Source: an uncultured delta proteobacterium (GTDB lineage Bacteria; Myxococcota; Myxococcia; Myxococcales; Myxococcaceae). From it: 64,000 nt of DNA. The DNA lies in NCBI GenBank assembly GCA_963796055.1, contig CAWCKH010000004.1, forward strand, positions 1,792,001 through 1,856,000, in the 5' to 3' direction. The position numbers and the translations under genes are program-made. The notes under the pieces were generated by a model that was not told the origin of the DNA, searched no databases, and saw only the letters and a list, made by a program, of their open reading frames with translations. Of the stretch, positions 7,330 through 31,900 are shown piece after piece; within the stretch, counting starts at the first letter, position 1; every line of letters begins with the position of its first letter.

Positions 7330-7527
7330 TCAGTGAGGGTGACCGTGATCCTTGCTGGGGCCGTGCCCGTGCGCGGCATCGCCGTGGCCGTGGTCCTGTT
7401 CGTGGCCCGGGTCATGCGGATGCTCGTGCGTGTGACGGTGGGTATGCGGATGGCTGTGGGTCGTGCCGTCCGCATGCGTATGTTCGTGGGTGTGCTGGTG
7501 CTCGTGTTCGTGGGTGTGCTCGGGCAT
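7330..7527 (-). CDS. Histidine-rich small protein, probable metal binder
   Basis: 24 of 65 residues are His, mostly in HxHxH runs; GGAGG just upstream of the ATG. Confidence 0.75.
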
Positions 7528-7616
7528 GGCGCCTCCGAACCCGGGTCTACGGCGAGCCTGCCGGAACCGACGTCGGCCGTCGAGCGCCTGTCCCCGGTCG
7601 GCGTGACCGAGGCGCT

Positions 7617-8570
7617 ATGGTGCCGTCCGGTCCGATGCGGGTTCCCGCGGTGAGAGCCGGCGCGCTGCGCGGCGAGGCCTACGGCGTCGTCTTCGAGGTC
7701 CGGGTGGACGACCGCCGGCTCCTGCCCGCGGTGCGTGTGCGCTTCCCCCCGGGCTGGAACGTCAGCCGGCAGAGTCCAGCGGTCGTCCTCTCCCTGGTGC
7801 ACGAGGTGCTGCAGGAGGTGTTTGACACCTCCCCCCGGACGGCGGGGCCGTCGCGGCGGACGGGGGGTTCGCGCGGGAGGTCCCGGCCGGTGGTCGGTCT
7901 GTCCGTGCGAGTGGACGGGCAGCGGGTGGCCCGCGGGTTCAGCCATGCGCAAGCCCTGGACGTGCTCGAGAGCGAGCTGCAGCTCACGGTTGCCCGGCTC
8001 GCCCGCCCCGAGGTGTTCGTCCACGCCGGTGTGGTGGCGGTGGACGGGCGCGCCATCCTGGTTCCGGGGCGCTCCGGTGCGGGGAAGACCACCCTGGTGC
8101 GCGCGCTGGTGGAGGCCGGGGCAACGTACTACTCGGATGAGTACGCGGTGCTCGACCGGGAGGGGCGTGTGCATCCGTACGCGCGCCGTCCGAGCGTCCG
8201 GCGGCGGGCTGGACACAAGGAGCGGCACCCGGTTCCGCGGGTCAGAGGTCGCGGGCCGGTTCCGGTGGGGATGATCGTCGAGACGCGGTACTCGACCGGT
8301 GCCCGCTGGGACCCCGTGTCACTGTCGCCGGGCGAGCGCGTGCTGGCGCTGCTGGCGAACACCGTGCCGGCGCGGGATCGCCCGGCCGAGGTGCTCACCG
8401 TGCTGGCGCGTGCCACCGAGGGGACCCTCGGTGTCCGGAGCGACCGCGGCGCGGCGAAGCAGACTGCCCGGCTGCTCATCGCGCTCGCCCGGAGCTCCGA
8501 TGGGCTGGAGCGCGTCCGTCCGCCGAGACCTGCACCTCGAACTGCCGGAGGGCGGAGTCGCCGGCCCTGA
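7617..8570 (+). CDS. HprK-related P-loop kinase
   Basis: FVHAGVVAVDGRAILVPGRSGAGKTTLVRAL...YYSDE (HAG, Walker A, SD[D/E]). Start at 7617 or 7635. Confidence 0.8.
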   Translation: MVPSGPMRVPAVRAGALRGEAYGVVFEVRVDDRRLLPAVRVRFPPGWNVSRQSPAVVLSLVHEVLQEVFDTSPRTAGPSRRTGGSRGRSRPVVGLSVRVDGQRVARGFSHAQALDVLESELQLTVARLARPEVFVHAGVVAVDGRAILVPGRSGAGKTTLVRALVEAGATYYSDEYAVLDREGRVHPYARRPSVRRRAGHKERHPVPRVRGRGPVPVGMIVETRYSTGARWDPVSLSPGERVLALLANTVPARDRPAEVLTVLARATEGTLGVRSDRGAAKQTARLLIALARSSDGLERVRPPRPAPRTAGGRSRRP

Positions 8571-13794: not shown

Positions 13795-13798
13795 GGAC

Positions 13799-16576: not shown

Positions 16577-17029
16577 ATGGCCTCATCCCTGGGCTTCGTT
16601 CCGCGGCGGCGGCCGAGCGGACTGGTCAGCGAGCACCTCGACGGTGAGGTGCTGCTGTATGTCGAGGCGACGCACAAGGCGTTCTGTCTCAACCCGGCGG
16701 CGTCGCGGGTCTGGGAGTCGATCGACGGAGCGCGGGACGTCTCGGGCATCGCCCTGCGCACCGCGCTCGATCCGGAGCTGGTCGGCGGCACGCTGCGGGA
16801 GATGGGCGAGGCGGGGCTGCTGGAGGAGGTGCCGGAGCTCCCGGGCGTGGATCTGTCGCGGCGGCGGCTCGTGCGCGCGGGGCTGGTGGCGATCCCGTTC
16901 ATCCTCGCGATCACCGTGCCCCGCGCGGCGGAGGCGGCGTCGTGCGTCACCGGCCTGCCCGGTACACCCTGCGATGACACCCACACCTGCTGCGTGGGCA
17001 TCTGCAACGCCGGGTTCTGCAAACAGTGA
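16577..17029 (+). CDS. PqqD/RRE domain fused to a twin-Arg leader and six-Cys peptide (putative precursor, copy 1)
   Basis: EVLLY...CLNPAASRVWESIDGAR (PqqD-like), then LSRRRLVRAGLVAIPFILAITVPRAAEAA and SCVTGLPGTPCDDTHTCCVGICNAGFCKQ. Confidence 0.8.
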   Translation: MASSLGFVPRRRPSGLVSEHLDGEVLLYVEATHKAFCLNPAASRVWESIDGARDVSGIALRTALDPELVGGTLREMGEAGLLEEVPELPGVDLSRRRLVRAGLVAIPFILAITVPRAAEAASCVTGLPGTPCDDTHTCCVGICNAGFCKQ

Positions 17030-18117
17030 AACTGGACGAGGCACTGGCGCTGGCGATCGCCGGCGCGCTGCGAAGAGCCTGGGCTGACCCCGGTCCACCC
17101 CGCGTGCCGGCGGTGGACGTTCGACGCTGGGCCGAGCGCTTGGTCGAGGGTGGTGTCGCAGGGCTCGCGTGGTGGCGCATCAAGAACACCGAGATGGGGA
17201 CGCTCGCCCAGCTCTTACCGCTGCGCGCAGCGTTTCAGCACCACGCCCTGACGGCGGCCAGGCAGGAACGCGATCTTCCGCATCTTCTGGCTCACTTCAA
17301 TGCCGAAGGGATCGAGCCGATCCTGTTCAAGGGGTGGACCCTCGCGCGACTCTATCCGCACCGCGCGCTCCGTCCGTTCGGTGACTTCGACCTGCTGGTG
17401 CGGGAGTCCGAGGTCGATCGGGCCCGCACGGTTCTGCGCTCCCTCGGACCGGACCTTCAGTCGCGGGCCGATGTAGACACCGCGCGGACGCTGGCGCGCT
17501 ACCTGCCTGATCGAACGGAGGCCGAACTCTTCGGCCGTGCCCGCTCGGAGACGGCCGGTGGTGCTCGGCTCAGGACGCTCGCCGCCGAGGACCACCTCCG
17601 TCTGGTGACGCTGCACCAGCTTCATCACGGGGCCTGGCGGCCGCTGTGGCTGTGTGACGTGGCGTTGTTGCTCGAGGCGCTCCCAGCGGAGTTTTCCTGG
17701 GAGCGGTGCCTCGCAGGCGATCCACGGCTGAGTGAGGGTGTACTGGTCAGCGTGGCGCTCGCGCACGAGTTGCTCGGAGCGACCATTCCGCGCGGAGTGC
17801 CGCAGGTGGCGGTCCCCCGCTGGCTCCGACGTGCGGTGTTCCACGGATGGGCGCATGGCTACGAGAGCATGCCCCCGTCGCTGTACGACCTCCGGAAGCT
17901 GGGGTGGCCAGAGGCGGTGACGGCAATCCGCGCGCGGTGGCCGGATCCGGTGAGCGCGACGGTGCATCTTCGCGCTCCGTTCCGAGCCGTGCCGCGTCCC
18001 GTGGTCCAGCTCACGGAGTGCCTGCGCCGGGCGGCGGCTTTCGTCCGGCGTGATTTGCGCTGGCGTGCGGGTCTGGACGCGCAGCTTGCAACTGTCGGCA
18101 AGGGGGTTGTGCCGTGA
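17026..18117 (+). CDS. Nucleotidyltransferase family protein (NTP_transf_5-like), copy 1
   Basis: GIEPILFKGWTLARLY, RPFGDFDLLV, DHLRL...H, LWLCDV; GTGA-coupled to both neighbours. Confidence 0.82.
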   Translation: MKLDEALALAIAGALRRAWADPGPPRVPAVDVRRWAERLVEGGVAGLAWWRIKNTEMGTLAQLLPLRAAFQHHALTAARQERDLPHLLAHFNAEGIEPILFKGWTLARLYPHRALRPFGDFDLLVRESEVDRARTVLRSLGPDLQSRADVDTARTLARYLPDRTEAELFGRARSETAGGARLRTLAAEDHLRLVTLHQLHHGAWRPLWLCDVALLLEALPAEFSWERCLAGDPRLSEGVLVSVALAHELLGATIPRGVPQVAVPRWLRRAVFHGWAHGYESMPPSLYDLRKLGWPEAVTAIRARWPDPVSATVHLRAPFRAVPRPVVQLTECLRRAAAFVRRDLRWRAGLDAQLATVGKGVVP

Positions 18118-21100
18118 CTGCCTGGAGGGCCCTGAGGGCCGCGCTGCTCATGGTGGCGGCGGCTAGCAGCCCGAGTCTTGCGCAGGTGACCTGCCCCATT
18201 GGGGCGAGCACGTGGCTGGACGGCGCGGGCTCGTGGGTGACCGGAACGAACTGGAATCCGACGGGGGTGCCAGCCCCGAGCGCCGATGTCTGCTTCGATA
18301 CTTCCACGGCCAACCCCACGCTCGCGGCCGGGACCACGACGGTGGGGACGCTGAACGTGCTGTCCACGGGGACCCTCACGTTGACCGGTGGCTCTCTCCG
18401 CAACTTCACGATCAACGGCGGGATCAATGCCGATGGTCCGTTCACCTTCAACAGCATCACCAATGTCATTCCCTCGGCGACTCAAAGCTGGGTGATCAAC
18501 GGGTTCGGAAGCACATTCAATTCTCCGCTATCGGTGCCGGTCCTGACTGCCGCGACGACAACGATCAACGTCACCGGGATCGCTGACCTCACTTTCAACG
18601 TGGCCGCCCCTCGGGGATTTCAGGCGTTCAACTGGGGCGCAGGCGTCCTGACCCTGACGACCAATGGGCTTGGATCAGGCACTCCGATCACCTTGAGTGG
18701 CGCGAATGCGGCACTCCTCGTCAGCTCGACGGCTGCACTGACTCTCGACAATCCCGTCATCGCCACTGCCTCCGGAGAGTTGTTGGCAGTGGACGGAGCG
18801 AGCGGTGTTCAGCACGCGCTCGGGCGTGTGACGGTCTCACCAGGCGTGACGCTCCAAGAGTTGCTGGGGGGCACGAACAACGTCAAGCTCCAGCTCGGTG
18901 GTCTCACGCTCGGCGCGGGCTCGACACTCCTGAAGCAGGACTTCGGCGGCATCTATGTCAATGGGAGCGTGTCCGACACGGCGAGCAGCACGCTGACTCT
19001 GTTCATCGGGTTCACGACCCCCACTGGCTCGCAGCTGGACGAGGGGCTGCACTTCCAGTCGAGCACGACGGTCAACTCGATCATCTCCTCCACCGCGAGT
19101 TTGAACTCGGCGATGGTCGGCGCGGACGGGGCCACCACTCTGACCCTCGCCGGTGTGGTCGATGTGGGGAACGCCGGCCGCCTGATCCTCATCCCCCGGG
19201 GCGGGGCCACCATCCTGTTCGGTCCTTCCTCGTTCAATGCACCGGGCAATCCGAACGACATCCAGCTCCGCGGCACCGCTGGCAACACCGTCGAGTTCAC
19301 CAACGCGGCGGTGACCGCGAACGCAGTCACGGTGTACGACGGGCTCAGTTTCCAGACCGACGCCAACCCACCGCCACCGACGGTCACCTTCTCCACCACG
19401 AGCGGAGCGACCTGGCGGGTTCGTAACGCGGCTCAAAGTCTCCCCGGAGCGCTCACGCTCAACGCCGCTGGGACCGTGGACACGGGAACCGATCTGACCA
19501 TCACCGGGGTGCTTGCCGGGTCCGGAGCGCTCACCAAGACGGGTGCTGGTTCGTTGACCCTCGGGCCGGGGACCCATACCCACAACGGTGGAATCACCGT
19601 GAACGCCGGGACGCTCGAGGTGGACGGAACGCTCACTGGTGAGAACACCATCAGCATCAACAACGGTGGTGGGCTCGCAGGTGCCGGGACGCTGCAGTCG
19701 GGCACCGGGCCGATCACCGTGGCAGCGGGCGCGCGCTACACGCCCGGCAGCGGCGGCACCGGAATACTCGCGACCAATGACCTGAGCCTCAGCGACACCT
19801 CGGTGCTGAACTTCACCGTGGGCACACCGACGACTACGGGTTCGGTCACCGGGGCGCTGCTCCTCGACGGCATCCTCAACATCACGCAGGGCCCGGGCTT
19901 CGCCCAGGGCGTGTACACGATCTTCACCGCGACCGCCGCGATCACCAACAACGATCTTCGTCTGGGCACGGTGCCCACCGGTTTCTCCTACGGCTACGCG
20001 GTCAACGGAAACCAGGTCGAGCTGCACGTCGGTCCGCCCCCCACGGCCGTCGAGATGGTGAAGTCCGATGCCGTCAGCGACGGCAGCTCGGCTCAGGTCG
20101 CCTGGGAAGCAGGGACCGAGGTGCGGAATCTCGGCTACCGCGTGTACCGGGAAGAGAACGGCCGTCGTCAAGAGATCAGCGGACTGATCGCCGGCTCATC
20201 GTTACGGGCGGGATTCGACCCCCTCGCCGGCCGCAACTACGGCTTTGTTGACCCGAGCGGATCGTGGGGAGCCCGCTACTGGATCGAGGCCATCGGTCTG
20301 GACGGGAAGAGCCAGTGGTTCGGGCCGGTGAACGCTCGGCGTGGAGACTTGCCCCAGACGCGTGTGCAATCCGCTGCGCTCGTGGCAAAGGTCGGGGCGT
20401 CGGCGCTGGTCGCCTCCGTTGAACGGCCCAGCGCTCGCCAGGTGGACCCACCGGGTGTCGATCGCTCTTGGCGAGATCCGAACCTGAGGCGACAGTGGGA
20501 GATCGCGGCCAGCTCGACTGCGGTGAAGCTCCTCGTCCATCAGGACGGCGTGTACCGGGTCAGCGCAGACCAGCTCGTCCAGGCCGGCCTTCCTGCGGGG
20601 ACTCCGCTCGGCTCGCTGAGGCTCTGGTCGGGCGGTAGCCCCGTCGCGTTCCGCGTGGTCGGGAATGCTGTCGAATTCTTCGGGCAGGCCGCGGACACCC
20701 GGTACACCGACACCCGGGTGTACTGGCTCACCACTGGGCTGGGCCAACCGATCTCGATCAAGGCGGCTCCGACGGCGAACGCCACGGGCGCAGCCGGCAG
20801 CTTCCTCGAAACGCTCGAGATTCGCGACCGTACGCTGTACCTCGCGGCACTCCTGAACGCAGAGACGGATGGCTTCTTCGGGGAACCGCTCATCGGAACG
20901 AGCCCGATGGAGCGCGTGTTCTCCACTCCTGCGCTGGCGGTGGTGGCGAGCGACCCCGCCGTGCTGGAGGTGAGCGTCCAGGGGCTCACCAACGGTAACC
21001 ACACGATCGACGTCACCGTGAACGGGCTCGTCGTGGGGACCGTCCACAGTGTGTTCCAGGACGTGGCGAAGGCCCGCTTCATGGTTCCGCCTGGGCTGCT

Positions 21101-22598
21101 GGTGGCGGGAGACAACAAGGTCACCCTGGTTGGGCGCACTAGCTCCGAGATCGCGATCGAGATCTCGCAGCGGCTCACCTACCCACGTCAGTACATTTTG
21201 GGTGGCCCGCTCCGTTTCACGGCTCCGACTGGATTGGCGCTGACGCTCGCCGGCGCGGACGCATCCACTCACGTCCTCGACATCACCAACGTCCTCTCCC
21301 CTGCGGCCGTCGCGCTCACCAGCACTTCGGGAGGGGCGCGTCTGATCGCTAGTGGCTCGGGTACACGCATCCTCTACGCCTACCGCGATTCCGACGTGCG
21401 CTCTCCCGCCTGGGTGCAGAACGTCTCGAGTGCCTGGCACAACTCCAGCGGCGCCGATCTGGTCATCATCGGTCAGCGGGATCTCCTACCGAGCCTCCGT
21501 CCGCTCGCGGAACAGCGGGCGAGTGAGGGCTTGAAGGTCGCGCTGGTCGACGTCACTGACGTGTACGACGAATTCTCTGCGGGCGAGAAGGATGCGATGG
21601 CCATCCGCGCATTCCTCTCGGCGGCGATGGAGCGGTGGTCGACGCCGCCCCGCTTCGTGCTTCTCGTCGGATCGGCCACCTTCGATCCGCGCGGCTGGCT
21701 CGGACAGCCGGAGCTCGACCAGGTCCCGACGGTGCTGGTGCAGACTCGCTACCTCGAGACGGCATCGGATGACGCACTCGTCACCTTCCACGGCACCGTC
21801 CCTGACTTGGCGATCGGGCGGCTACCGCTCTCCACGCCAGCGGCGATGGAAGCGGCTGTGGCAAAGATCGTCGGGCGCAAGCTGGCGGGCGGCGAGGACA
21901 CGCTGCTCCTGATACGCGATCGGGACGGCACCATCTCGTTCTCCGCAGCCTCAGCCGAGGTGCGGGCTGCAGTCTCAAGCTGGAAGGCGCAGGACTTCCC
22001 ACGCGGCGCCGATGACGCCGCTACTCATTCCGCCCTGCTTGACGCACTTCGCAGTGGTCCGATCGCCGTCGACTACCAGGGTCACGGAGCGGAGGACTTC
22101 TGGGCCGGACGGATATTGGCGTCCACGGATGCCGATGCTCTGGCCGGTGCCGGCACGAGTTCGCTCGTGGTCGCCGCCACGTGTCTGAACGCGTACTTCC
22201 TGGACATCGGTCGCGAGAGCTTGGGCGCCGCGATGCTCAGGACCCCAGAAGGCGGCGCCTGGGGCGTCTGGGCGTCCTCCGCCCTGACACTTCCAACCGA
22301 CCACGCGCTGCTGAGCAAAACGCTGCTCTCCGCGGTGCTGAACGACGGGATGACGCTCGGGGAGGCGACCCTCAAGGCCAAGCAGGCGGTGAGTGATCTC
22401 GACGTTCGTGCCACCTTCCACCTCCTCGGCGACCCGAGCGCCCGGGCCGTGGCCACGCGGAGCTCTGCACTCACGATCTCGAAGCCGAAGAGCTCCTCGG
22501 CCGGCGGCTGCAATACCCCGGGTGGTCCGCTCTCGGCGCTGGCGCCGCTGGTCTTGGCCGTCCTGGCGCTCTCGCTCCGCCGCCGCTCGGTCTCCTGA
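18114..22598 (+). CDS. Secreted beta-helix / C25 (gingipain-like) cysteine peptidase with MYXO-CTERM-type tail, paralog 1 (1494 aa)
   Basis: Signal peptide; autotransporter-type repeat LTKTGAGSLTL; VYDEFS, RFVLLVG, ASDD, IGRLP, YQGHG, ATCLNAYF, LLGDPS; tail GGC-linker-TM-RRR. Confidence 0.85.
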   Translation: MTAWRALRAALLMVAAASSPSLAQVTCPIGASTWLDGAGSWVTGTNWNPTGVPAPSADVCFDTSTANPTLAAGTTTVGTLNVLSTGTLTLTGGSLRNFTINGGINADGPFTFNSITNVIPSATQSWVINGFGSTFNSPLSVPVLTAATTTINVTGIADLTFNVAAPRGFQAFNWGAGVLTLTTNGLGSGTPITLSGANAALLVSSTAALTLDNPVIATASGELLAVDGASGVQHALGRVTVSPGVTLQELLGGTNNVKLQLGGLTLGAGSTLLKQDFGGIYVNGSVSDTASSTLTLFIGFTTPTGSQLDEGLHFQSSTTVNSIISSTASLNSAMVGADGATTLTLAGVVDVGNAGRLILIPRGGATILFGPSSFNAPGNPNDIQLRGTAGNTVEFTNAAVTANAVTVYDGLSFQTDANPPPPTVTFSTTSGATWRVRNAAQSLPGALTLNAAGTVDTGTDLTITGVLAGSGALTKTGAGSLTLGPGTHTHNGGITVNAGTLEVDGTLTGENTISINNGGGLAGAGTLQSGTGPITVAAGARYTPGSGGTGILATNDLSLSDTSVLNFTVGTPTTTGSVTGALLLDGILNITQGPGFAQGVYTIFTATAAITNNDLRLGTVPTGFSYGYAVNGNQVELHVGPPPTAVEMVKSDAVSDGSSAQVAWEAGTEVRNLGYRVYREENGRRQEISGLIAGSSLRAGFDPLAGRNYGFVDPSGSWGARYWIEAIGLDGKSQWFGPVNARRGDLPQTRVQSAALVAKVGASALVASVERPSARQVDPPGVDRSWRDPNLRRQWEIAASSTAVKLLVHQDGVYRVSADQLVQAGLPAGTPLGSLRLWSGGSPVAFRVVGNAVEFFGQAADTRYTDTRVYWLTTGLGQPISIKAAPTANATGAAGSFLETLEIRDRTLYLAALLNAETDGFFGEPLIGTSPMERVFSTPALAVVASDPAVLEVSVQGLTNGNHTIDVTVNGLVVGTVHSVFQDVAKARFMVPPGLLVAGDNKVTLVGRTSSEIAIEISQRLTYPRQYILGGPLRFTAPTGLALTLAGADASTHVLDITNVLSPAAVALTSTSGGARLIASGSGTRILYAYRDSDVRSPAWVQNVSSAWHNSSGADLVIIGQRDLLPSLRPLAEQRASEGLKVALVDVTDVYDEFSAGEKDAMAIRAFLSAAMERWSTPPRFVLLVGSATFDPRGWLGQPELDQVPTVLVQTRYLETASDDALVTFHGTVPDLAIGRLPLSTPAAMEAAVAKIVGRKLAGGEDTLLLIRDRDGTISFSAASAEVRAAVSSWKAQDFPRGADDAATHSALLDALRSGPIAVDYQGHGAEDFWAGRILASTDADALAGAGTSSLVVAATCLNAYFLDIGRESLGAAMLRTPEGGAWGVWASSALTLPTDHALLSKTLLSAVLNDGMTLGEATLKAKQAVSDLDVRATFHLLGDPSARAVATRSSALTISKPKSSSAGGCNTPGGPLSALAPLVLAVLALSLRRRSVS

Positions 22599-22783
22599 GG
22601 CCGGACGTTGTGAACCGGCGCGCTCTGCGCCGTGGGTCACCACCGACTTGGTGGCCCGCGCCGACCCCGCATCCCACCTCTGCGGGGAATGTCGGACCGC
22701 GTCGGCAAACTACCGACTGAACTTCGAGCTCTCTCCATGTCGTCGACGCGCAGAGGCGCTTTCTCGACGGAGCGTCGGAGTGT

Positions 22784-22811
22784 CTGCGAGGATGCGGGCA
22801 TCGATTCTGCA
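22784..22811 (+). promoter_or_regulatory. Putative sigma54 (-24/-12) promoter
   Basis: GG(22797-98)-N10-GC(22809-10) within CTGCGAGGATGCGGGCATCGATTCTGCA; a near copy occurs at 28862. Confidence 0.55.
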
Positions 22812-22823
22812 CCCTGACCCTTG

Positions 22824-23279
22824 ATGCCGAACCGACCCAAGGCCCGGACGGACCAGCTCCTCGTCCAGAGAACTGGACAGGACACCCTGGTCTACGACGA
22901 GCGGACCCACCGGGCGCACTCCCTCGATGCGAGGGCGGCACGGGTGTGGGAGCTCTGCGACGGCGCACGGACCGAGCCCGAGATCGCGCAGGCTTACGGC
23001 GAGGGCGCAGCAGGCGAGGCGGTGGTGAGCTGGACGCTGGCAGCGCTTGAGAAATCCGCGCTCCTCGAGGACGACAGCGGAGTGGAGGCGCGGGCGGCAC
23101 TGAGCCGGCGGGCGCTGATGAGGACCGTCGGGCTCGCGGCGATCCCGGTCATCATGGCGATCACCGCTCCGCGGGCGCGGGCGGCCGTGTCGAGTTGCTC
23201 GAACGGTGGGCAGCAGTGCTCGACGAAGCCGTGCTGCCCCATGTTGACCTGTGACACCCAGACCTTCACCTGTCAGTGA
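22824..23279 (+). CDS. PqqD/RRE domain fused to a twin-Arg leader and six-Cys peptide (putative precursor, copy 2)
   Basis: TLVYDERTHRAHSLDARAARVWELCDGART, then LSRRALMRTVGLAAIPVIMAITAPRARAA and VSSCSNGGQQCSTKPCCPMLTCDTQTFTCQ. Confidence 0.82.
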   Translation: MPNRPKARTDQLLVQRTGQDTLVYDERTHRAHSLDARAARVWELCDGARTEPEIAQAYGEGAAGEAVVSWTLAALEKSALLEDDSGVEARAALSRRALMRTVGLAAIPVIMAITAPRARAAVSSCSNGGQQCSTKPCCPMLTCDTQTFTCQ

Positions 23280-24280
23280 CCGCGGTGGCACATCCCCTGG
23301 CGATGGCGTTGCGCGACACCTTCCGCACCCAGGCGGTCGGGCCGATGTCGCTCGCCCCTGAGCTCGTCCGCTCTGCCGAAGTGACTGGAGTCGAGGCGCT
23401 GCTGCTGCGGCGTCGAGAGGACGTGCCATCCGGGACGGAGCGCTTCCAGAGTCTGGAGTACCTTCGTCGCGAGCGCTGGCTGGCCTCGGTCTTCACCGCG
23501 CTCGAGTCCCACGGAATCCGGGCGGTCACGTTCAAGGGCTGGGCTCTCGCCCGCCTCTACGGCCGACCCGGGCTGCGGCCGGTCGGCGACGTGGACCTCG
23601 CCGTCCGTCCCGAAGACTTCGGACACGCGCGGACGGTACTCGCCGCCTTCCAGGGCGAGAACGAGGTCGATCTCCAGTCGGACCTCTCGCGGTACCTTCC
23701 TGACCGGAGCCCGGAGGCGCTGCTGACCTGCGCCCAGGCCGTCGAGGTCGCCGGTGGTCACATCCAGGTACTGGGTCCCGCCGACCACCTCCGTCTGGTT
23801 TGTCTCCACCAGCTCCACCACGGATCCTGGCGGCCTCTTTGGCTGTGCGACGTGGCGGTGCTGCTCGAGTCATTGCCGGCGGACTTCTCCTGGGCGGAGT
23901 GCCTTCATGGGAGCCGGCACCTGGGAGAGGGCGTGCTCGCCTGCGTGGGTCTCGCCTGCGAATGGCTGGGCGCAAGACCGACGGTGCCGCCGCCGGAGGC
24001 CGTCGTCCCGGAGTGGTTCCGCCGTGCGGTCGGGAGTGCATGGGACCGGGGCTACCGTCCGTCTCCGGAGCGGCTCGAGGGCATCTCGCTGGCCCGGCTT
24101 CCAGAAGCGCTCAGGGCACGCTGGCCGGATCCACTGTCCTCGACGCTCCATCTGGACGCACCTTTCCACCGGGTACCGAGACTGCCGATCCAGGTTGCGG
24201 AGCTGGTCCGCCGCAGCTCGCGCCACGCCGTCCGCCGGTGGCGGTCGCGCGGAGCGGGGGTGGGAAGGGGGGAGTCGTGA
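23276..24280 (+). CDS. Nucleotidyltransferase family protein (NTP_transf_5-like), copy 2
   Basis: FKGWALARLY, RPVGDVDLAV, DHLRLVCLHQLHHGSWRPLWLCDV; clear paralog of 17026..18117. Confidence 0.82.
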   Translation: MTAVAHPLAMALRDTFRTQAVGPMSLAPELVRSAEVTGVEALLLRRREDVPSGTERFQSLEYLRRERWLASVFTALESHGIRAVTFKGWALARLYGRPGLRPVGDVDLAVRPEDFGHARTVLAAFQGENEVDLQSDLSRYLPDRSPEALLTCAQAVEVAGGHIQVLGPADHLRLVCLHQLHHGSWRPLWLCDVAVLLESLPADFSWAECLHGSRHLGEGVLACVGLACEWLGARPTVPPPEAVVPEWFRRAVGSAWDRGYRPSPERLEGISLARLPEALRARWPDPLSSTLHLDAPFHRVPRLPIQVAELVRRSSRHAVRRWRSRGAGVGRGES

Positions 24281-27200
24281 GAAGACTGATTCCGTTCGCG
24301 TTGCTTGCAGTCGCACTGGCTGCGCCACGGGCGCATGCCGTCGCCAAAACCTGGAACGGCAGCGTCAACATCCAGTGGAACAACGGCGCCAACTGGACGC
24401 CCGCCGGAGTTCCGACCGCCGCGGATGACGTGACGATCAACGTCCCAGGCACGGTCCGGATCTCGAACAATCCGATCGCCGCCGATGCGGTCGCAGCATC
24501 GCTGACCATCGGTGCGGCGGTCACGATGAATCGCGGCAACGGCCACATCCTCACCGTGACCAACGGCATCAATGTCAACTCGACCTCTGACGTGTTGATC
24601 CAGGTGCCGTTCACCGCGGCGAGCCTGAGCAAGAGCGGCACCGGAAATCTGACCCTGAACGGAGCCGCCCTGTCCGGGACGACGCCGCAGGTCAGCGGGA
24701 CGGTCGACGTGACCGGCGGGACACTGACCCTCAACGGCGGGAACGATCTGACCACCGGCGGAGCGGTGAACGTCAGCACGGGCGCGACCCTGGCTCGCAA
24801 CGGTGCCGGCTTCCTGAACGCGGGTGGAGCGGTGACCGTCGATGGAGGAGCGATGACCTTCGCCGCCGGTGGTGGTCTCGCCGCCAGTGCGACGGTCACC
24901 GTCATGGGCGGGGGAACCGTGTCCTTCGCCGGAGGCGGCGGTCTCACCTCGGGCGGCGCGGTGACCGTCACTGGTGGGACGATGAGCTTCGCGGCCGCTG
25001 GTGGTCTCACCTCGGGCGGAGGAGTGAACGTCACCGGCGGAACGATCACCTTCGCTGGCGGTGGCGATCTCGCATCGGCGACTTCGATGGTCACCGTGGG
25101 GGCCGGCGGCACTCTGGCATTTCCCGGCAATGCCAACCTCGGCGCGGGCGACGTGATCGTGAACGGCGGAATCGTCTCCTTTGGCGGGAACGGAGATCTC
25201 ATTGCCACCGGAGGAGTGACGGTGACCGGAGGAGGGAGTCTCTCCTTCGGTGGGAACGGCGACATCACCGCTCAGAGCTTCACGCTGGCCTCGGGCTCGT
25301 CATTCACCTTGAACTTCGCCACCGGTGGCAACCCGACGAACATCAACCTCACCGGCGGGACCGGAGCCCTGGGCGGGACCGTCAACATCACCGGGACTCC
25401 GAACGCAGCCAGCTTCAACATCCTCACCGGTGCGAGCACGGTGGACATCACCGGGGTGATGCTCGGGAGCGCGCCGAGCGGATTGGCGTTCGGGTTCCGC
25501 CCACTGGGAACCAGCACCGTCGTGCTCGACGTGACGGTCAACCCCATCGCTCCGGATGGCACCGCCTCGGCCACTGGAAGCTGCCCGGGACCGATGACCT
25601 GGCAGCACACCATCTCCGCAACCGCCAACGACCGCTACCTGCTGGTCGGAGTGTCGACGGGCACCAGCGCCGTCACCCCGACGGCGGTGAGCTTCGGCGC
25701 CCAGCCAATGGGCCTCATCGCCAGCCGGGTCAATGGCAGCTCGGGCGCGTTCATCTATGGCCTGGTGGCCCCGGGGCGTGGAACGGGGACCATCACCGTC
25801 ACCCTCCCCGCAGGCCCATGCAGCGTGGTCGCCGGCTCGCTCTCGTATACGGGGGTCCTTCAGGCCAGCTCGACGGGCACCGCCGCCACCGCCGCGGGGA
25901 CGGGGACCAGCGCCTCGGCGTCGCCTTCGACCGTCCAGGGGGACAAGGTCATCGCCGTCCTGGCGTCCAACGGGGCCACCTCCGCGACCCCGCAGGCCGG
26001 AGCGACCGTCCGCTGGTCTGCGATCCAGGGCACGGTGCTCGGCGCGGGTGATACCGCGAGCCGCAGCGGGGCAGGCACTTTCAACGTGACCATGAGCTGG
26101 ACCCTGAGCCCGTCGAGCGAGTTCGCGCTCGCGTCGGTCCCCATCCATGCGGCAGCGCCCACTCGGGTGATGGAGATCGCGGCATCGGTTCGGCGCTCGG
26201 GGACGGCCCTGGCGGTGTCCGTGCGGTCTGGGCCCAGGTCGGACCTGGTGGGCTTTCGCGTGTGGCGCGAGGCCGCTGGGCAGCGTGAGCTCCTCACCCC
26301 AGGTCTGGTGGAGGGTCCGGTACTCACCTCACGGGCCAGCCTGCTGGCAGGCTCTGAGAGCGGCTGGGTCGATGCCCGACCCGTCCCCGGTGCGAACTAT
26401 CTGATCGAGGCGCTCCACCTCAACGGTCGGACCACCTGGTCGCGGGCGGCACCTGGCGCGGGTCCGGCTCCCCCCGTGGCCTCGGCTCTGCTGGCGTCGC
26501 CGGCCAGTGCGGTGGTGGTTCACCAGCCCGCGCTTCGCGTGAGCGCCGCCGAGCCCGTGTCTCGCAGATCCGCGCTGGTGATGCAGGGCACCCAGTGGCA
26601 GCTCGCCGCGGACGCCGCGGTGAAGATGAGGGTGTCCACGGCGGGCCTGGTCCGCGTCCCGGCCGAGCTGCTCTTCGCCGCCGGCATTCCCGTCGGTGCC
26701 GCGGCGTCCTCGATCCAGCTGTTCCGCGGTGGGCGCCCAGTCCCCCGGACCGTCGACGCCTCGGACGGCGTTACGCTGCGGAGCGGGGACGCAGTGGAGT
26801 TCTACGGCTACCCGATGGACACGCGCTACTCCGGCTCCGCCGTCTACTGGCTGACCGCAGGCAAGGGTGTGGGCGTGGAGGTCCCGAGCACCGGGTGGAT
26901 CGCGCCGGGCGCGGCCACCCGCTCGTATCTCGCCTCAGCCGAGGTCCGGGAGCGCCTCACCTGGTTTGGCGCCGCAAGAAACGGCGACGCCGAGAAGTTC
27001 TTCGGGCCGGCGGTCCACTCCACCGCCCGGCAGCGGACGATTCCGGTCGACGCCCTTGACGTCTCGGGGGCGGGGGCACGGCTCGAGCTCGCGTTCCAGG
27101 GTTTGACCGAGATCCCCCACGCAGTGTCGGTGAGCGTGAACGGCCTCCCTGTCGCCTCGGTGACCTTCGACGGGAATACACCCCATTCGGCGCTGGTCCC

Positions 27201-28761
27201 TCTTCCGCCGGGGACCTTGGTGGCCGGGGACAACACCGTCGAGCTGGTCGCGCCCGGCTCGGCGGACATCTCGCTCGAGCAGTACGTCCGGCTGGTCTAC
27301 CCGCGCTTCACGGTCCGCGGCTCGGGCGCGCTGGAGTTCACCCTCGCCGGAGGAGCTGCCACCCGCCTGGACGGCTTCGATCCGGGGCTCACCCGCGTGC
27401 TGGACATCACCGACCCGGACGCCCCCGTGCGCCTGACGACCTGGGACGAATCGGGAGCTGCGGCGGTGGCTGCACCAGGGTCGGGTTCCCGGCGGCTCTT
27501 GGCCTATCTCCCGACGGACGTGGCGTCCCCGGTTTCGGTGGTGGCCAATCGTCCCAGCAGCTGGCACTCCGCGGAGGGCGCGGACCTGATCATCGTGGGT
27601 CCGGCCTCGCTCCTCCCGGAGGCGCAGGCGCTGGTCGACGCGCGCAGGGCACAGGGCCTTTCGGTGGCGCTGGTGGATGTCGAGGATGTGCAGGACGAGT
27701 TCGCCTCCGGTGAGAAGAGCGCCGATGCCCTGCGTGGCTTCCTCCAGCAGGCGCTGGGGGCCTGGGCGCGGCCACCGCGCTACATTCTCCTGCTCGGCTC
27801 GGCCACCTATGACCCCCGTGACTACCTCAGGCTGGGCGGAGACCTGGTCCCCAGCGGCACCGTGCAGACCGAAGTGCAGATGAACGGGCAGACCGAGGCG
27901 CTCGAGGCAGCCTCGGACAGTTGGTTCCTGGGCGTCCCGGGTGCGGGGGCCCTTAGCATCGGGCGTCTTCCGGTGAGGACTGCGGAGGAGACCCGGGCAG
28001 TGGTGGCGAAGATCGTCGGGCGGCGGGATGCGGATGCGAAGGCGAACGTCCTGCTGGTCTCCGACCGTGCGGGGACCAGCGACTTCCCGGAGATGAGCGC
28101 CGACCTTCGGGCCGTGCTCCCGGACGCCCAGGCGACGGTGCTGGTGCGGGGGTCGGACACGGACCAGGTGCTGCACCAGCGGATGCTGGAAGCACTCCGG
28201 GCCAGTCCGGCCCTGGTGAACTACATCGGCCACGCCGCGGAGACGTTCTGGAGCGACCCCACCGCCCCCCTCTTCAGCGTCGACGACGTGTCCGCGGTCG
28301 CTGGAAACCAGCCCGGCTTGTGGATCGACATGAGCTGCCTCACCGCGTTCTTCCAGGATCCGCGTCGTCAGAGCCTGGACGTCGCGACCTTGTTGGCCTC
28401 CGAAGGTGGGGCCTGGGGCACCTGGGGCAGCACGGCGAAGACCTACCCGGGCGATCACGCAGGCCTGAATCGGGCGCTGGTGCGCGCGCTGCTGATCGAA
28501 GGGAAGACGCTCGGCGAAGCAACTCGTGACGCTCTCGCCTCCGCCACCGACCCGCAAGTGCAGTCGACGTTCGTGCTGCTCGGCGACCCGAGCGCCCGCG
28601 CCGTGGCCACGGCGGCGCTCGAGGTGGCCCCCCCGAAGCCGTCCGCCTCCTCCGGGTGCAGCGCGACTCCCGCTGGGTCCGGCACCCTGGCGCTCCTTGC
28701 CATCGGCCTCTGGTGGGCCGCGGCGCGACGCCGCGTCCGAGTGGGGGTCCGGCGCGAATAG
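24277..28761 (+). CDS. Secreted beta-helix / C25 cysteine peptidase with MYXO-CTERM-type tail, paralog 2 (1494 aa from GTG 24277)
   Basis: Signal peptide RRLIPFALLAVALAAPRAHA; VQDEF, IGRLP, NYIGHA, MSCLTAFF, LLGDPS; tail SGC-TM-RRR. The upstream part of ORF 23800 is shadow of the NTase gene. Confidence 0.85.
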   Translation: MRRLIPFALLAVALAAPRAHAVAKTWNGSVNIQWNNGANWTPAGVPTAADDVTINVPGTVRISNNPIAADAVAASLTIGAAVTMNRGNGHILTVTNGINVNSTSDVLIQVPFTAASLSKSGTGNLTLNGAALSGTTPQVSGTVDVTGGTLTLNGGNDLTTGGAVNVSTGATLARNGAGFLNAGGAVTVDGGAMTFAAGGGLAASATVTVMGGGTVSFAGGGGLTSGGAVTVTGGTMSFAAAGGLTSGGGVNVTGGTITFAGGGDLASATSMVTVGAGGTLAFPGNANLGAGDVIVNGGIVSFGGNGDLIATGGVTVTGGGSLSFGGNGDITAQSFTLASGSSFTLNFATGGNPTNINLTGGTGALGGTVNITGTPNAASFNILTGASTVDITGVMLGSAPSGLAFGFRPLGTSTVVLDVTVNPIAPDGTASATGSCPGPMTWQHTISATANDRYLLVGVSTGTSAVTPTAVSFGAQPMGLIASRVNGSSGAFIYGLVAPGRGTGTITVTLPAGPCSVVAGSLSYTGVLQASSTGTAATAAGTGTSASASPSTVQGDKVIAVLASNGATSATPQAGATVRWSAIQGTVLGAGDTASRSGAGTFNVTMSWTLSPSSEFALASVPIHAAAPTRVMEIAASVRRSGTALAVSVRSGPRSDLVGFRVWREAAGQRELLTPGLVEGPVLTSRASLLAGSESGWVDARPVPGANYLIEALHLNGRTTWSRAAPGAGPAPPVASALLASPASAVVVHQPALRVSAAEPVSRRSALVMQGTQWQLAADAAVKMRVSTAGLVRVPAELLFAAGIPVGAAASSIQLFRGGRPVPRTVDASDGVTLRSGDAVEFYGYPMDTRYSGSAVYWLTAGKGVGVEVPSTGWIAPGAATRSYLASAEVRERLTWFGAARNGDAEKFFGPAVHSTARQRTIPVDALDVSGAGARLELAFQGLTEIPHAVSVSVNGLPVASVTFDGNTPHSALVPLPPGTLVAGDNTVELVAPGSADISLEQYVRLVYPRFTVRGSGALEFTLAGGAATRLDGFDPGLTRVLDITDPDAPVRLTTWDESGAAAVAAPGSGSRRLLAYLPTDVASPVSVVANRPSSWHSAEGADLIIVGPASLLPEAQALVDARRAQGLSVALVDVEDVQDEFASGEKSADALRGFLQQALGAWARPPRYILLLGSATYDPRDYLRLGGDLVPSGTVQTEVQMNGQTEALEAASDSWFLGVPGAGALSIGRLPVRTAEETRAVVAKIVGRRDADAKANVLLVSDRAGTSDFPEMSADLRAVLPDAQATVLVRGSDTDQVLHQRMLEALRASPALVNYIGHAAETFWSDPTAPLFSVDDVSAVAGNQPGLWIDMSCLTAFFQDPRRQSLDVATLLASEGGAWGTWGSTAKTYPGDHAGLNRALVRALLIEGKTLGEATRDALASATDPQVQSTFVLLGDPSARAVATAALEVAPPKPSASSGCSATPAGSGTLALLAIGLWWAAARRRVRVGVRRE
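24715..25290 (+). repeat. About nine degenerate 21-22 aa Gly-rich coding repeats
   Basis: Units such as GGTMSFAAAGGLTSGGGVNVT, GGTVSFAGGGGLTSGGAVTVT and GGIVSFGGNGDLIATGGVTVT. Confidence 0.75.
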
Positions 28762-28861
28762 GTCGATTGACCGGGAAGGATCGCCGTGCTCTCGCGCGCC
28801 CGCCGCGCACACCTCGGTAGGTTCGGAGCGTCGACCGCATCCTCGACCGGGGCAGATCGCC

Positions 28862-28890
28862 CTGCGAAGATGCAGGGCATCGAACCTGCA
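28862..28890 (+). promoter_or_regulatory. Putative sigma54 (-24/-12) promoter
   Basis: GG(28876-77)-N10-GC(28888-89) within CTGCGAAGATGCAGGGCATCGAACCTGCA. Confidence 0.55.
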
Positions 28891-28905
28891 AACGGCTCGC
28901 CGCTG

Positions 28906-31900
28906 ATGTGGTCTCGAGACAGGCTCCACCGGCGGTGCGGCAGGAGCGCGGCCCGAAGGCCGAGCGCCCGTCGTCCCACGGCACTGCTCTCGTTGGGGCT
29001 GGCGGCAGCGGTGCTGCTGTCGACGGAGGTCCGAGCCGCCGCGGTGAATTGGCAGGCCGGAAGCGGCGCCTGGAACAACGGTGTCAACTGGTCGACGGGG
29101 ACCGTTCCGACCTCGAACGACGACGTCACCATCAATTCGGCGGTCACCGTCCAGGTGAACAACCAGGGCGGCAACGCGGTCGCCCGCACTCTCACCCTCG
29201 GATCGGGCGCGGCCCTGACCCGGGCGAACGGAAGGACGCTCGCGGTCGGTCAGGGCATCAACGTTGCCTCCGGCAACGCCACCCTGAACATTCCCTTCAC
29301 CGCCGGAACCCTCAGCAACACCGGTACCGGCACCCTGACCGTCGGCCAGTCCGGGACCGTGACCGGCAACGTCGGGGTGAGTGACGGGGGAACCCTCGCT
29401 TTTACCGGAACCGCCACTTTGGGCGCCGGAAGCTTCACCCTCGCATCGGGTTCGGCGCTGACCTTGAACTTCTCGAACACGACCACGGTCGCGCTCCTCA
29501 CCGTCTCGGGCAACGCGACGGTGGCCGGGACGCTGAACCTCACCGGCTCCACCCCCAGCCTCGCCGGAAGCCCGTACCACCTCGTCAGGTCCACCGGCGG
29601 CACGATCGACTTCACCGGGCTCTCGCTTGGCACCGTTCCGGGAGGCCGCACCTTCGGGTTCCGCGTCCTGGGAACCGACCTGGTCATGGATGTCACGCAG
29701 AACCCGATCGCGATCGACTCGGTCACCTCGACCACCGGGACCTGCGCCGCGGGGACAGTCAGCTGGCAGCACACCATCGGCGCCACGGCAAACGACCGGC
29801 TGCTGATCGTCGGTGTCTCGACCGGAAGCAACTCGGGCAGCGCGTTGCCCACCTCGGTGAGGTACGGGACCCAGACCCTGACCGCGCGAGGCGGAGACAA
29901 CGCCGGAACCACGCAGGTGCAGATCTACACGCTGCTCGCGCCTCCGCGGGGGACGAACACGGTGACGCTGACCTTTCCGGGAGGCAGCACCTGCTTCGCG
30001 GTTGCGGGCTCGGTCTCCTACACGGGTGTGAGCCAGTCCAACCCGATCGGCGGAGTGGTCAGCGACACCGAGACCGGGAACACCCCGCTGCTGGCGACCA
30101 TCGACGTGAACGTGCAGCCCCATTACAAGGTGTTCGCCGTCCTCTCCTCGAACACCGCGACGTCGGCCACCCCGGTCCAGTCGAACGTGACGGCGCGCTG
30201 GTCCGCGCTCAACGGGACCGAGTTCGGAACCGCCGAGACCCTGGCCTACGGGGGAAACAACAACACCACCATCACTCTCTCGTACAACATGGGCCCGCCC
30301 AGCTCGACCTTCTGGTCGCTCTCGGCCATGCCGATCCACCCGGCGAATCCAAACGCTGCGGCGCCACCCGCGCCCGTCGTCCGGTGGTCGGCCGGGGGTG
30401 CCGCGCTTTCCTGGAGCCTGGACGCCACCTCGGATGTGGTGGGCTTCCGCGTCTGGAGAGAGGCCGCTGGGCAGCGGGTGCTCCTCACGCCGGGGCTCCT
30501 TGCCGGCCCACTGCTCGCCAGCAGGGCGACATTGCTCGCCGGCTCGCAACCCGGATGGGTCGACCGGAGCCCGGTTCCGAGTGCCACGTACCTGGTCGAG
30601 TCACTGCACCGGGACGGAAGCACCCGCTGGACGCCCGCCGTCGCCGGCTCCGGTACGGCTCCTGCCCTCTCCTCGGAGCTCGTCGCGGTTTCTCCCTCGT
30701 CGCTGCTCCGTGCACTGCCAGGGCTGCGGGTCGAGCCTGCCGACCTTCCGGCGCTACCGCCGCGGCCTGGCTCCCGGGAGCTCCAGTGGGAGCTCGCCGC
30801 GGGCCACGCGGTCAAGCTTGTCGTCTCGCGGCCGGGTGTGGTCCGCGTGTCTGCGGAGTCGCTTTTCGCTGCAGAGATTCCGGTCGGAACTCCGGCTTCC
30901 TCGCTCCAGCTGTTCCGCGAGGGGCGCCCGGTTGGCCGCACCGTGCTCACCACAGACGGAGCAACGCTCCAGCCGGGCGACTCGGTCGAGTTCTACGGTC
31001 ATGGGATGGACACGCGGTACTCGGGCTCGGCGGTCTACTGGCTGACCACCGGAGCCGGACGAGGCAGGGAGATCCCAACGGTGTCGGCGCCGTCGCAGGG
31101 TGTCGACACCGGCTCGTTCATGGCCGCGACCGAGATCCGGGAGCGGTTGACCTGGTTCGGCGCGGCCCGGAACGGAGACGCAGAGAAGTTCTTCGGGCCC
31201 GCCGTGCACAGCCAGGCCCGCACGCGGACGATCTCCGCCGAGGGGCTCGACGTCGCCGGCAGCGGAGCGCAGCTGGAGGTCGCGCTCCAGGGCGTCACCG
31301 AGGTGCCTCACGCGGTCAACGTGAGTCTCAACGGTCTGTCGCTCGGAACCCTCTCGTTCGAGGGCGCGGTGCCCGGGCGGGCGACCTTCGGGGTGCCGCC
31401 TGGAGCGCTCATCCCGGGGGACAACGAGATCGAGCTGGTGGCGCCCGCCGCCTCCGACATCTCCCTGGAAGAGTTCGTCCGGCTGGTCTACCCGCGGCAG
31501 ACGCTCCGGGGCTCGGGTGCGCTGGACTTCAGGCTTCAGGGCGGGAGTGCCACGCTCCTCAAGGGCTTCGACCCCACGCTTACGCGGGTCCTCGATGTGA
31601 CCGACCCGGAGGCCCCCGTGCAGCTCGTCACCTGGGACCTCTCCAGCGACGCGGCGGTCGCGGCCCCCGGCTCGGGCCCTCGGCACCTGCTGGCGTACAT
31701 CCCGGGCGATACCACTCCTCCGGCGTCGGTGCGCGTCAACCATCCGAGCAGCTGGCACGCGGCCGAGGGGGCGGACCTGGTCATCGTCGGTCCGGCCGGG
31801 CTCTTCGGTGCAGTGAAGCCCCTGGTGGAGCGGCGGCAGTCGGAGGGGCTGCGGGTGGCCCTGGTGGACATCGAGGACGTCCAGGACGAGTTCGCCTCCG

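Follow-up and report, generated by a model that had tools for sequence, protein, structure and literature searches.

Why does a twin-arginine segment lie some 92 residues into a protein, behind a folded domain, and what does it do there? Two genes in the window (the whole 64,000-nucleotide stretch of Myxococcaceae DNA analysed here) raise this question. Precursor 1 (16577..17029, + strand) encodes 150 residues comprising an RRE domain (residues 7-84), a linker, a twin-arginine leader (residues 93-120) and a six-cysteine core, and precursor 2 (22824..23279, + strand; 151 residues) has the same architecture and is 40% identical to it. The internal leader or export signal of precursor 1 (16853..16939, + strand) translates to LSRRRLVRAGLVAIPFILAITVPRAAEAA and that of precursor 2 (23100..23186, + strand) to LSRRALMRTVGLAAIPVIMAITAPRARAA, each beginning at residue 93 of its open reading frame. 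In precursor 1, the segment contains the arginine pair 95-96, the invariant Pro107, a modelled strand at 109-113, and Pro115. Cleavage is predicted after A-E-A (residue 120), which would leave a mature core of about 30 residues (16937..17026, + strand) with a serine at position 2 as the candidate kinase site; in precursor 2, predicted cleavage after A-R-A would place the core serine at position 3.

The two precursors share 19 of 29 residues in the segment, 29 of 84 in the RRE and 9 of 29 in the core, and the mean column entropies over 150 homologues are 1.75, 2.00 and 2.31 bits, respectively. Both measures confirm what the preliminary description had read from the letters, namely that both proteins carry an LSRR-type segment about 92 residues in that is conserved above the cores.

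Genomic setting and extent of the family

Each precursor is followed by an NTP_transf_5 nucleotidyltransferase. The first (17026..18117, + strand; PF14907, E = 4e-30) has a start that overlaps the precursor 1 stop, and the second (23276..24280, + strand) is 47% identical to it. Three C25 (gingipain/PorU-like) proteins lie on the same strand. C25 protein 1 (18114..22598; PF01364, E = 1e-60; NF033707 below its cut-off) shows in its sequence a signal peptide, the His and Cys motifs of the catalytic site and a tail that is MYXO-CTERM-like, and similar tails are found in C25 protein 2 (24277..28761; TIGR03901, E = 0.011) and C25 protein 3 (28786..32922). We rejected C25 as an obligatory partner: of 10 Myxococcota genomes that encode a fused precursor of full length, 7 contain a C25 match, and a match above the cut-off is present in 74 of 301 genomes.

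An HprK-related kinase (7635..8570, start uncertain, + strand; TIGR04352, E = 8e-18, below the cut-off) lies 8 kb from the precursors, with opposite-strand genes including an RND efflux operon in between. It is 46% identical to a Blastocatellia cluster kinase, whose single match in the genome it is, and no other gene in the genome is orthologous to the conserved cluster kinase. A third precursor paralog is found elsewhere in the genome, without an adjacent kinase or nucleotidyltransferase. RRE, leader and core are fused in frame in all three paralogs, the genome's only RRE matches to the family profile.

The precursor family is very large (6,461 clusters at 50% identity) and unstudied, its members being annotated only as PqqD-family or hypothetical proteins, and it probably exports its peptide after modifying it within the cell. 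We collected 369 sequences and left out 3 duplicates and 17 that could not be parsed, giving 349; removal of 3 mis-parsed sequences gave the 346 used for covariation and proline-spacing counts. ESM Atlas searches with the whole protein returned PqqD-bearing clusters only, and those with leader plus core returned nothing above 0.76. A search among longer proteins for an RRE-leader fused to known exported enzymes (7,998 candidates scored) gave only P0268 (587 residues), which resembles a pair of reading frames run together and contains no additional Pfam domain; we take this as a weak negative. Relatives of a 71-residue unfused precursor were searched for and none was found. The family profile also has a weak match to the N terminus of the arsenite oxidase AioB (E = 0.88), which we did not count as evidence.

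The upstream domain is an RRE that appears to hold the hydrophobic stretch

The upstream domain is a PqqD-like RRE of the lasso B1 type. PF05402 matches it in both precursors, at E = 6e-4 in one, which falls short of the curated cut-off, and at 2e-5 in the other, which passes it, and the model shows a three-strand, three-helix winged fold (strands 16-21, 24-29 and 34-38; helices 40-48, 55-62 and 66-78). Its best structural matches are TbiB1 and the B1 protein of 6JX3 (Z = 9.0); against 5V1U and 6JX3, the r.m.s.d. is 1.8-2.1 across 75-77 residues. A plain PqqD reading was rejected.

Residues 109-113 are modelled as a strand both in the full-length AlphaFold model and in a model lacking the core, where only the RRE sheet is left for it to pair with. 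Confidence in the leader is modest (blocks at 73-81 in the full model and 64-69 without the core), and we read these models as secondary structure only. Covariation points to the same contact. The top covarying pair joins residue 36 in RRE strand 3 to leader residue 111 (z = 9.2 overall and 8.7 in 138 representatives), while the best RRE-leader pair in three shuffles reaches 4.1-4.5, and all 101 representatives with His36 have Ser or Thr at 111. Clear covariation is limited to this one RRE-leader pair, and no coupling between the RR helix and the RRE rises above the shuffles, which indicates that the masked part is the h-region. Thus, the RRE appears to grip the Pro-x-Ile strand within the hydrophobic region (residues ~104-113) rather than the arginine pair. 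The intramolecular RRE-leader contact suggested in the preliminary description is therefore favoured by two models and by covariation, in a refined form in which the h-region is held and coupling to RR is not seen.

Kinase, nucleotidyltransferase and the candidate modification site

A Ser or Thr lies 15 residues after the invariant proline in 320 of 346 members and is missing in 26; Thr occupies the site in 57 of 349. Among 78 GTDB members, 58 have Ser or Thr there and 12 have Asn. The unfused relative L154 has Gly at the site, and L153 has a Ser one residue later. The spacing equals that between P-13 and S3 of LppA, whose Ser is phosphorylated by a kinase; LppK rejected Thr (PMC13381572). On the basis of sequence and homology, we predict that the Ser after the cut is a phosphorylation site.

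The precursor family is a variation on the logic of LPP and phosphorylated lasso clusters. With the LPP clusters of Bacillota (LppA/K/B/S/D/N) it shares a lasso-type RRE, a kinase of HprK-like type, an NTP transferase, location in polysaccharide loci, the lack of a lasso cyclase, and a conserved leader with a variable core, as well as a Pro-x-Val/Ile motif whose Pro is followed 15 residues later by a Ser, immediately past the cut, and signal-peptidase-type cleavage (PMC13381572). The RRE is discrete in LPP, whereas here it is fused to the precursor. Of the LPP leader YxxPxVLxHQxIxFETxxS, only Pro-x-Val/Ile and the Ser spacing recur in the fused family, whose leader instead combines a twin-arginine n-region with a hydrophobic stretch and AxA. 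Further differences are the mostly disulfide-rich cores, the Gram-negative hosts (Myxococcota and Acidobacteriota), the frequent C25 neighbours, and a SipW-like LppS and an ABC exporter that were not found in the loci. No S26-type peptidase motif was found in the window or in loci L026-L150, but one is present in five discrete-RRE loci; many of the metagenome loci are short; ABC exporter matches near precursors in 79 GTDB loci amount to 3 open reading frames, each at least 5 kb away.

The phosphorylated lasso peptides paeninodin, pseudomycoidin and Bsf of Bradymonas, the last of which is phosphorylated on Ser3, likewise have a B1-type RRE fold, a kinase and a nucleotidyltransferase (PMC10368454), but here the RRE is in cis and the cores lack a lasso layout. 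We rejected a lasso peptide reading, as no macrolactam cyclase or B2 peptidase is among the recurrent neighbours (for B2, as seen with models other than its own), and the genome's Asn_synthase matches are far from all three precursors. Bufferins resemble the family in that a RiPP precursor leaves by a general pathway via a signal peptide, but they differ in having an N-terminal Sec signal dispensable for modification, a separate RRE-like protein and MNIO chemistry (PMC11626156). The HPr-rel-A models (TIGR04352 kinase and TIGR04353 PqqD-family chaperone) describe the same kind of kinase and PqqD-type domain and both match weakly, but the scores are far under the cut-offs (64.6 versus 200 and 21 versus 35) and the model chaperone is a stand-alone domain of ~74 positions. 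In the 79 GTDB loci, a nucleotidyltransferase neighbours the precursor in 61, a kinase in 51 and polysaccharide genes in 44.

Chaperones of the TorD/DmsD type hold Tat signals, and the RRE could be a built-in proofreading chaperone for a Tat signal on an unmodified peptide, with the kinase and nucleotidyltransferase acting on, for instance, polysaccharide or C25-protein biogenesis. The structural and Tat evidence fits this equally well, as do the members that lack the Ser/Thr, the third paralog with no enzymes nearby, the polysaccharide setting of the loci and the finding that LppN was inactive in the LPP study (PMC13381572). However, the fixed 15-residue spacing matches LppA, the kinase-precursor-nucleotidyltransferase gene order is kept from Acidobacteriota to Myxococcota, and a 30-residue core without a cofactor offers little to proofread. 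We consider this explanation improbable.

The segment resembles a Tat signal

The segment has the layout of a Tat signal peptide: hydrophobic-S-R-R-x-hydrophobic-hydrophobic-R/K, an uncharged stretch and AxA, with a basic residue ahead of the cut in 176 of 349 members. At least 13 uncharged residues are present in 344 of 349 and a possible signal peptidase I site in 334 of 349. R95 is found in 150 of 150 homologues and R96 in 148, with no Lys in 300 RR cells; these homologues were gathered with profiles that include RR, so the counts carry selection bias. Position 100, by contrast, has Arg in 85 and Lys in 42. The variability of RR that would have counted against the preliminary description is thus not seen. 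When the genome's genes of at least 150 residues (from a rough gene prediction) were screened for an RR context, at least 13 uncharged residues and AxA at residues 80-110, only 5 of 3,917 were picked out, three of them from this family, so the internal layout is not due to chance. Only 262 of 349 family members pass a Tat-like rule.

There are also differences from known Tat signals. Ahead of the segment lies a folded, soluble domain to which the h-region appears to bind, the passenger is ~30 residues, and the internal proline pair is fixed (an invariant Pro, with a second at +8 in 342 of 346), followed by Ala at +13 in 307 of 349. Phe is seldom seen two residues after RR (3 of 345), and the hydrophobicity of the h-region exceeds that of the genome's N-terminal Tat-like signals (2.24 versus 1.73). 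PF10518 and TIGR01409 do not match the segment at E up to 10, and TIGR02811 matches weakly, in the second copy only (E = 0.12-0.48). The true-looking N-terminal RR signals of DUF1552 proteins likewise fall below the PF10518 cut-off. With a leader-only profile run against 401 Myxococcota genomes, the next matches after the family and one unfused relative are N-terminal RR signals, and all ten of the next-best matches checked are DUF1552 proteins with RRxFL-type signals. These have the same internal Pro pattern without an RRE, and the internal Pro alone therefore proves nothing.

RR is at residue 95 rather than at the N terminus, for which the Streptomyces Rieske protein with its internal Tat signal is a precedent (PMC13186574). 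In the unfused relatives L153 and L154, SRR with YxxPxV or WxxPxI lies near the N terminus, beside an RRE and a kinase. The aromatic residue of [YW]xxP becomes aliphatic in the fused family, where the position three before Pro is Val, Ala, Ile or Leu, with Phe in 3 of 349 and Tyr and Trp not among the six commonest residues. We rejected the idea, raised earlier, that an internal start before RR operates generally. Four codons upstream of RR, the conserved Val is encoded by GTC in 17 and GTG in 8 cases (elsewhere 171 and 137), and start codons accompanied by a Shine-Dalgarno-like word are present in 6 of 36 genes from myxobacteria and 6 of 70 from GTDB loci, which is within the range of the controls. 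TatC is encoded in this genome and in 29 of 29 other carriers, but its occurrence in 11 of 14 control genomes means that its presence says little.

The Tat-like appearance of a RiPP leader could be incidental, with the arginines binding a tailoring enzyme or setting topology and the segment acting as an internal Sec/SRP signal that is then cut. The silence of the curated Tat models, the high hydrophobicity and the scarcity of Phe agree with this, and disulfide cores form after export, so a route for folded proteins is not needed. However, a topology role would tolerate Lys, of which RR has none, and the distance from RR to Pro varies (11-20), unlike that of an enzyme contact fixed on the RRE. 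One unfused relative carries SRRGFVAK, and the nearest profile matches are the RRxFL-type signals. An incidental resemblance is therefore unlikely.

An uncleaved type II anchor, with the RRE inside and the cystine-knot core outside, possibly as a sensor or inhibitor for C25 proteins, would suit the 19-residue window above hydropathy 1.6 in 305 of 349 members and the Tat-dependent internal anchor of the Rieske protein, but is very unlikely given that the uncharged run of both window proteins spans no more than 15-16 residues, and given the retained Pro and Ala positions, and a layout that recurs in unfused relatives and DUF1552 signals. The membrane anchor offered as an alternative in the preliminary description thus becomes the less likely one because 334 of 349 members retain a site of the signal-peptidase type.

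The core is a predicted knottin-like mini-protein

The cysteines of core 1 follow the knottin-like spacing C-x8-C-x5-CC-x3-C-x4-C, and its model contains a C-terminal hairpin (pLDDT 90-94). Six cysteines are present in 280 of 349 cores and an even number in 342. Matches to cystine-knot sequences are weak (E = 0.03-1), with PF07740 on 2 of 120 homologues. The core is thus predicted to be a six-cysteine, knottin-like, disulfide-rich mini-protein.

Proposed mechanism and significance

Features of a RiPP leader and those of a Tat signal come together in the segment, and both roles gain computational support; the earlier proposal that one segment serves as both is strengthened by these computed marks, namely RR conservation, the RRE contact and the Ser spacing. 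We therefore favour, with a probability of roughly 0.6, a RiPP-type precursor whose cis RRE grips an internal leader that doubles as a Tat signal, with modification by the kinase and nucleotidyltransferase followed by export. Each gene would encode a RiPP-type precursor that carries its RRE in the same chain. Within the cytoplasm, this domain would fold back and take the Pro-x-Ile strand as a fourth strand of its sheet, as the models and covariation suggest. This would hide the hydrophobic stretch and, judging from homology and spacing, offer the Ser/Thr at Pro+15 to the HprK-like kinase, after which the nucleotidyltransferase would act, as in LPP and phosphorylated lasso pathways. Upon release by the RRE, TatBC would take the twin-arginine signal while the RRE stays on the cytoplasmic side, and housekeeping signal peptidase I would cut at AxA. 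The ~30-residue core, with a modified Ser at position 2-3, would be freed into the periplasm, where three disulfides may form. Fusion and the general Tat and signal peptidase machinery would thereby take over what LPP assigns to a discrete RRE, a dedicated peptidase and an ABC exporter. The product may well act on the surface of the cell, in concert with the C25 proteins and exopolysaccharide genes encoded nearby.

A more elaborate version, which we consider doubtful, is self-gated secretion, in which the cis RRE sequesters the internal Tat h-region until the kinase and nucleotidyltransferase have decorated the Ser next to the cut, which triggers its release to TatBC; the C25 proteins, as PorU-like transpeptidases, would attach the exported hypervariable knottins to exopolysaccharide or the cell surface. 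Bacteria would then have a widespread system of knottin display in which export is coupled to modification.

If the favoured reading of a cis-bound leader and Tat signal is right, a single stretch of 29 residues serves at once as the RiPP leader that an RRE binds and as a Tat signal, and a folded, soluble domain before a Tat signal would be natural and common rather than an engineered oddity. The system would allow a direct test of coupling between modification and export, and would provide the NTP_transf_5 enzymes of the LPP and paeninodin pathways, as yet unexplained, with a simple substrate. It would also open up thousands of disulfide-rich mini-proteins in Acidobacteriota and Myxococcota.

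Architecture and distribution of the fused precursors

The window encodes two precursors on the plus strand, precursor 1 (16577-17029, 150 residues) and precursor 2 (22824-23279, 151 residues), and a third paralog lies outside it in the same genome (G000:C4:704891-705328). The observed arrangement of RRE, internal leader and core is real, and at the sequence level the fusion, its motifs and its neighbours are established. In both window proteins the leader begins at residue 93 and is better conserved than the core (19/29 versus 9/29 identical), as the preliminary description had stated; overall identity is 40% and that of the RRE 29/84. The N-terminal domain matches PqqD in profile comparison and is predicted to adopt a lasso B1 RRE-like fold (model pLDDT 89; top structural matches TbiB1 and 6JX3). 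By a single rule, 5 of the 3,917 predicted genes of the genome carry a Tat-like segment at residues 80-110, three of which are the paralogs.

A two-protein profile retrieves 6,461 clusters (50% identity) at E up to 0.001 and 3,666 up to 1e-10, of which the best 150 were examined; the weaker matches may include stand-alone RREs. Close homologues (71-73% identity) are named in their source as Myxococcaceae or Vicinamibacteria proteins. An RRE-only pattern finds 475 relatives in GTDB genomes, the best 80 of which (79 loci) are mostly from Blastocatellia. A full-length fused copy is present in 10 of 301 Myxococcota genomes, with RRE-only matches in many more. In one genome (L113:11081-13105, G205) the transposase of an insertion sequence interrupts the precursor gene within the RRE, which is an accident and not a natural split.

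The cores are hypervariable, with a median length of 32 residues, and cysteines are even in number in 342 of 349 members, six in 280 and absent in three. Since some cores are collagen-like or Thr/Pro-rich, the module carries diverse passengers. P0167, P0170, P0238 and L194:1173-1799 have collagen-like Gly-Pro-Thr repeats or Thr-rich or Pro/Thr-rich cores with no cysteine knot.

Twin-arginine character of the leader

Tat signals follow a twin-arginine consensus in which the pair is not replaceable by Lys, and signal peptidase cleavage obeys the -3/-1 rule. The preliminary description had made its reading of the leader as a Tat signal depend in part on conservation of the pair (residues 95-96 here). 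Among 150 aligned members, the first Arg is present in all and the second in 148, with Lys in none; at position 100, by contrast, 85 have Arg and 42 Lys. The distance from the pair to the invariant Pro 107 varies from 11 to 20, as would be expected of an elastic h-region and unlike a fixed enzyme contact. An uncharged stretch of 13 or more residues is found in 344 of 349 members, and 334 have a sequence that could serve signal peptidase. Some features count against a Tat signal. The curated Tat models run on the segment gave no match, and our own Tat-like rule is passed by 262/349. Phe is rare at its place in the motif, where Leu and Ala are also common in the N-terminal RR signals of the genome, and the h-region is more hydrophobic than theirs.

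An uncleaved membrane anchor displaying the core outside, as suggested earlier, is less likely: the two window proteins have an uncharged run of just 15-16 residues, and the family keeps the pattern of a cut site. Internal initiation before the pair finds no support, codon use giving no sign of a second start.

With a leader-only profile, the family ranks first across 401 Myxococcota genomes, followed by N-terminal twin-arginine signals; all ten of these examined were DUF1552 proteins. The myxobacterial DUF1552 signals (L172-L185) share L-P-x-L-x-S-L..P..AxA with the family leader and are a possible source of it. TatC is encoded in the genome and in 29/29 carriers versus 11/14 controls, which says little because most controls have it too. 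An internal Tat signal is known from a Streptomyces Rieske protein (PMC13186574), and the candidate signal is likewise internal here.

A predicted contact between the RRE and the leader

The full AlphaFold model of the precursor places a strand at residues 109-113, as read from secondary structure alone, the tool giving no contact list. This strand is retained, at lower confidence (blocks 64-69), when residues 1-122 are modeled with the core removed, and its predicted partner must therefore be the RRE sheet. In mean-field covariation (347 rows, effective 193), 36-111 is the top pair of the whole protein (z 9.2; 8.7 in 138 representatives alone), whereas three shufflings of the leaders gave a best RRE-leader pair of only z 4.1-4.5. 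Ser/Thr 111 accompanies His 36 in 101/101 representatives. Residue 36 sits in RRE strand 3, the leader-binding place in RREs (PMC7470986). Beyond 36-111, no RRE-leader pair rose above the shuffles, nor did any pair involving the twin arginines. A contact of the RRE with its own leader in cis, as proposed, is thus indicated for the h-region, which would be the part that is masked; no coupling to the twin arginines was seen.

A predicted kinase site

A second Pro follows Pro 107 at +8 in 342/346 members, and Ser/Thr stands at +15 in 320/346 (close myxobacterial members 130/130, representatives 132/138, GTDB members 58/78). In the linear polyphosphorylated peptide (LPP) precursor, P-13 is the RRE-bound Pro and S3 the phosphorylated residue (PMC13381572), the same distance of 15. 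Two differences count against the parallel: LppK left S3T unmodified, whereas Thr is common at the family site, and the aromatic residue of [YW]xxP is aliphatic here. Asn replaces Ser/Thr in 12/78 GTDB members, and in a Blastocatellia subgroup it is followed by Cys (L029, L035, L038, L051, L052, L054, L072, L091, L094 and L101), which could mark a different modification.

Gene neighborhood

Of the 79 GTDB loci, 61 contain an NTP_transf_5 (NTase) gene, 51 encode an HprK-like kinase, 44 have a polysaccharide gene and 33 a C25 (gingipain/PorU-like) protein bearing the His and Cys motifs; the commonest order is kinase, precursor, NTase. In the window, an NTase lies directly 3' of each precursor, followed by C25 proteins, while the sole kinase orthologue is 8 kb upstream, past opposite-strand genes. 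These include an RND efflux operon (10693-16316, minus; outer membrane factor, adaptor and AcrB/CusA-type pump); related clusters at L109, L111 and L114 are flanked by another RND operon. A short His-rich repetitive reading (about 7330-7530, minus; HEHTHEH-type) stands in head-to-head orientation to the kinase gene; it was read from DNA alone, in a frame different from the listed long ORF.

PorU has a sortase role. All four C25 genes of the genome adjoin the three precursors; across the phylum, C25 was ruled out as a necessary or specific partner. The three window proteins (18114-22598, 24277-28761 and 28786-32922) are large and secreted, with intact His and Cys motifs and variable beta-strand-repeat N-terminal parts. 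They also have MYXO-CTERM-like tails, which would suit a myxobacterial host; in Acidobacteriota, related proteins stop after the C25 domain and lack such a tail. When S26-type peptidases were sought by motif, the window and L026-L150 (125 stretches, many of them short) gave none, while five loci with a discrete RRE, a radical SAM enzyme and C25 were positive. The one housekeeping signal peptidase I gene is far from the precursors. ABC transporter matches in the GTDB loci number three ORFs, all at least 5 kb away.

Unfused relatives

L153 encodes an unfused 71-residue peptide (9570-9782) with SRR, YxxPxV and AAA; beside it are a gene that fuses radical SAM to an RRE and a kinase gene. With its Cys-rich precursor and SPASM-containing fusion, this cluster (L153:9570-12217, G062:C408) may specify a RiPP that resembles sactipeptides or ranthipeptides and has a Tat-type leader. 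A 76-residue reading in L154 (G053:C21, 9162-9392, minus) has SRRGFVAK, WxxPxI and ALA, with an NTase-like gene on one side and, on the other, genes for a kinase, a methyltransferase and a discrete RRE; its core is His-rich, and the product is possibly a metal-binding peptide. Ala lies 13 residues past the Pro in both, as in 307/349 fused members. Their layout appears ancestral, though they are examples and not a rate, coming from 13 stretches picked by RRE or weak leader matches. A recurring Myxococcota cassette (L155:919-6904, L186-L189, also L190) has a discrete RRE, a radical SAM/SPASM enzyme and C25, usually an HprK-like kinase and in five loci a small S26-type peptidase; no small twin-arginine precursor was found near it.

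Proposed mechanism

We consider it somewhat probable (roughly 0.6) that one segment is both RRE-bound RiPP leader and Tat signal. The RRE would bind the leader h-region in cis and position the Ser for the kinase and NTase; the leader would then be released to Tat, signal peptidase I would cut the exported precursor, and core disulfides would form outside. The tailoring logic resembles that of LPPs and phospho-lasso peptides, but the family fails membership of either. In the open literature searched, we found no description of an RRE/PqqD-fused precursor with a twin-arginine leader, although the RRE-Finder supplements could list such proteins. The fusion of RRE, Tat-like leader and core is a variation on LPP/phospho-lasso tailoring with an apparently undescribed architecture, and its product may have a surface role together with the C25 proteins and exopolysaccharide.
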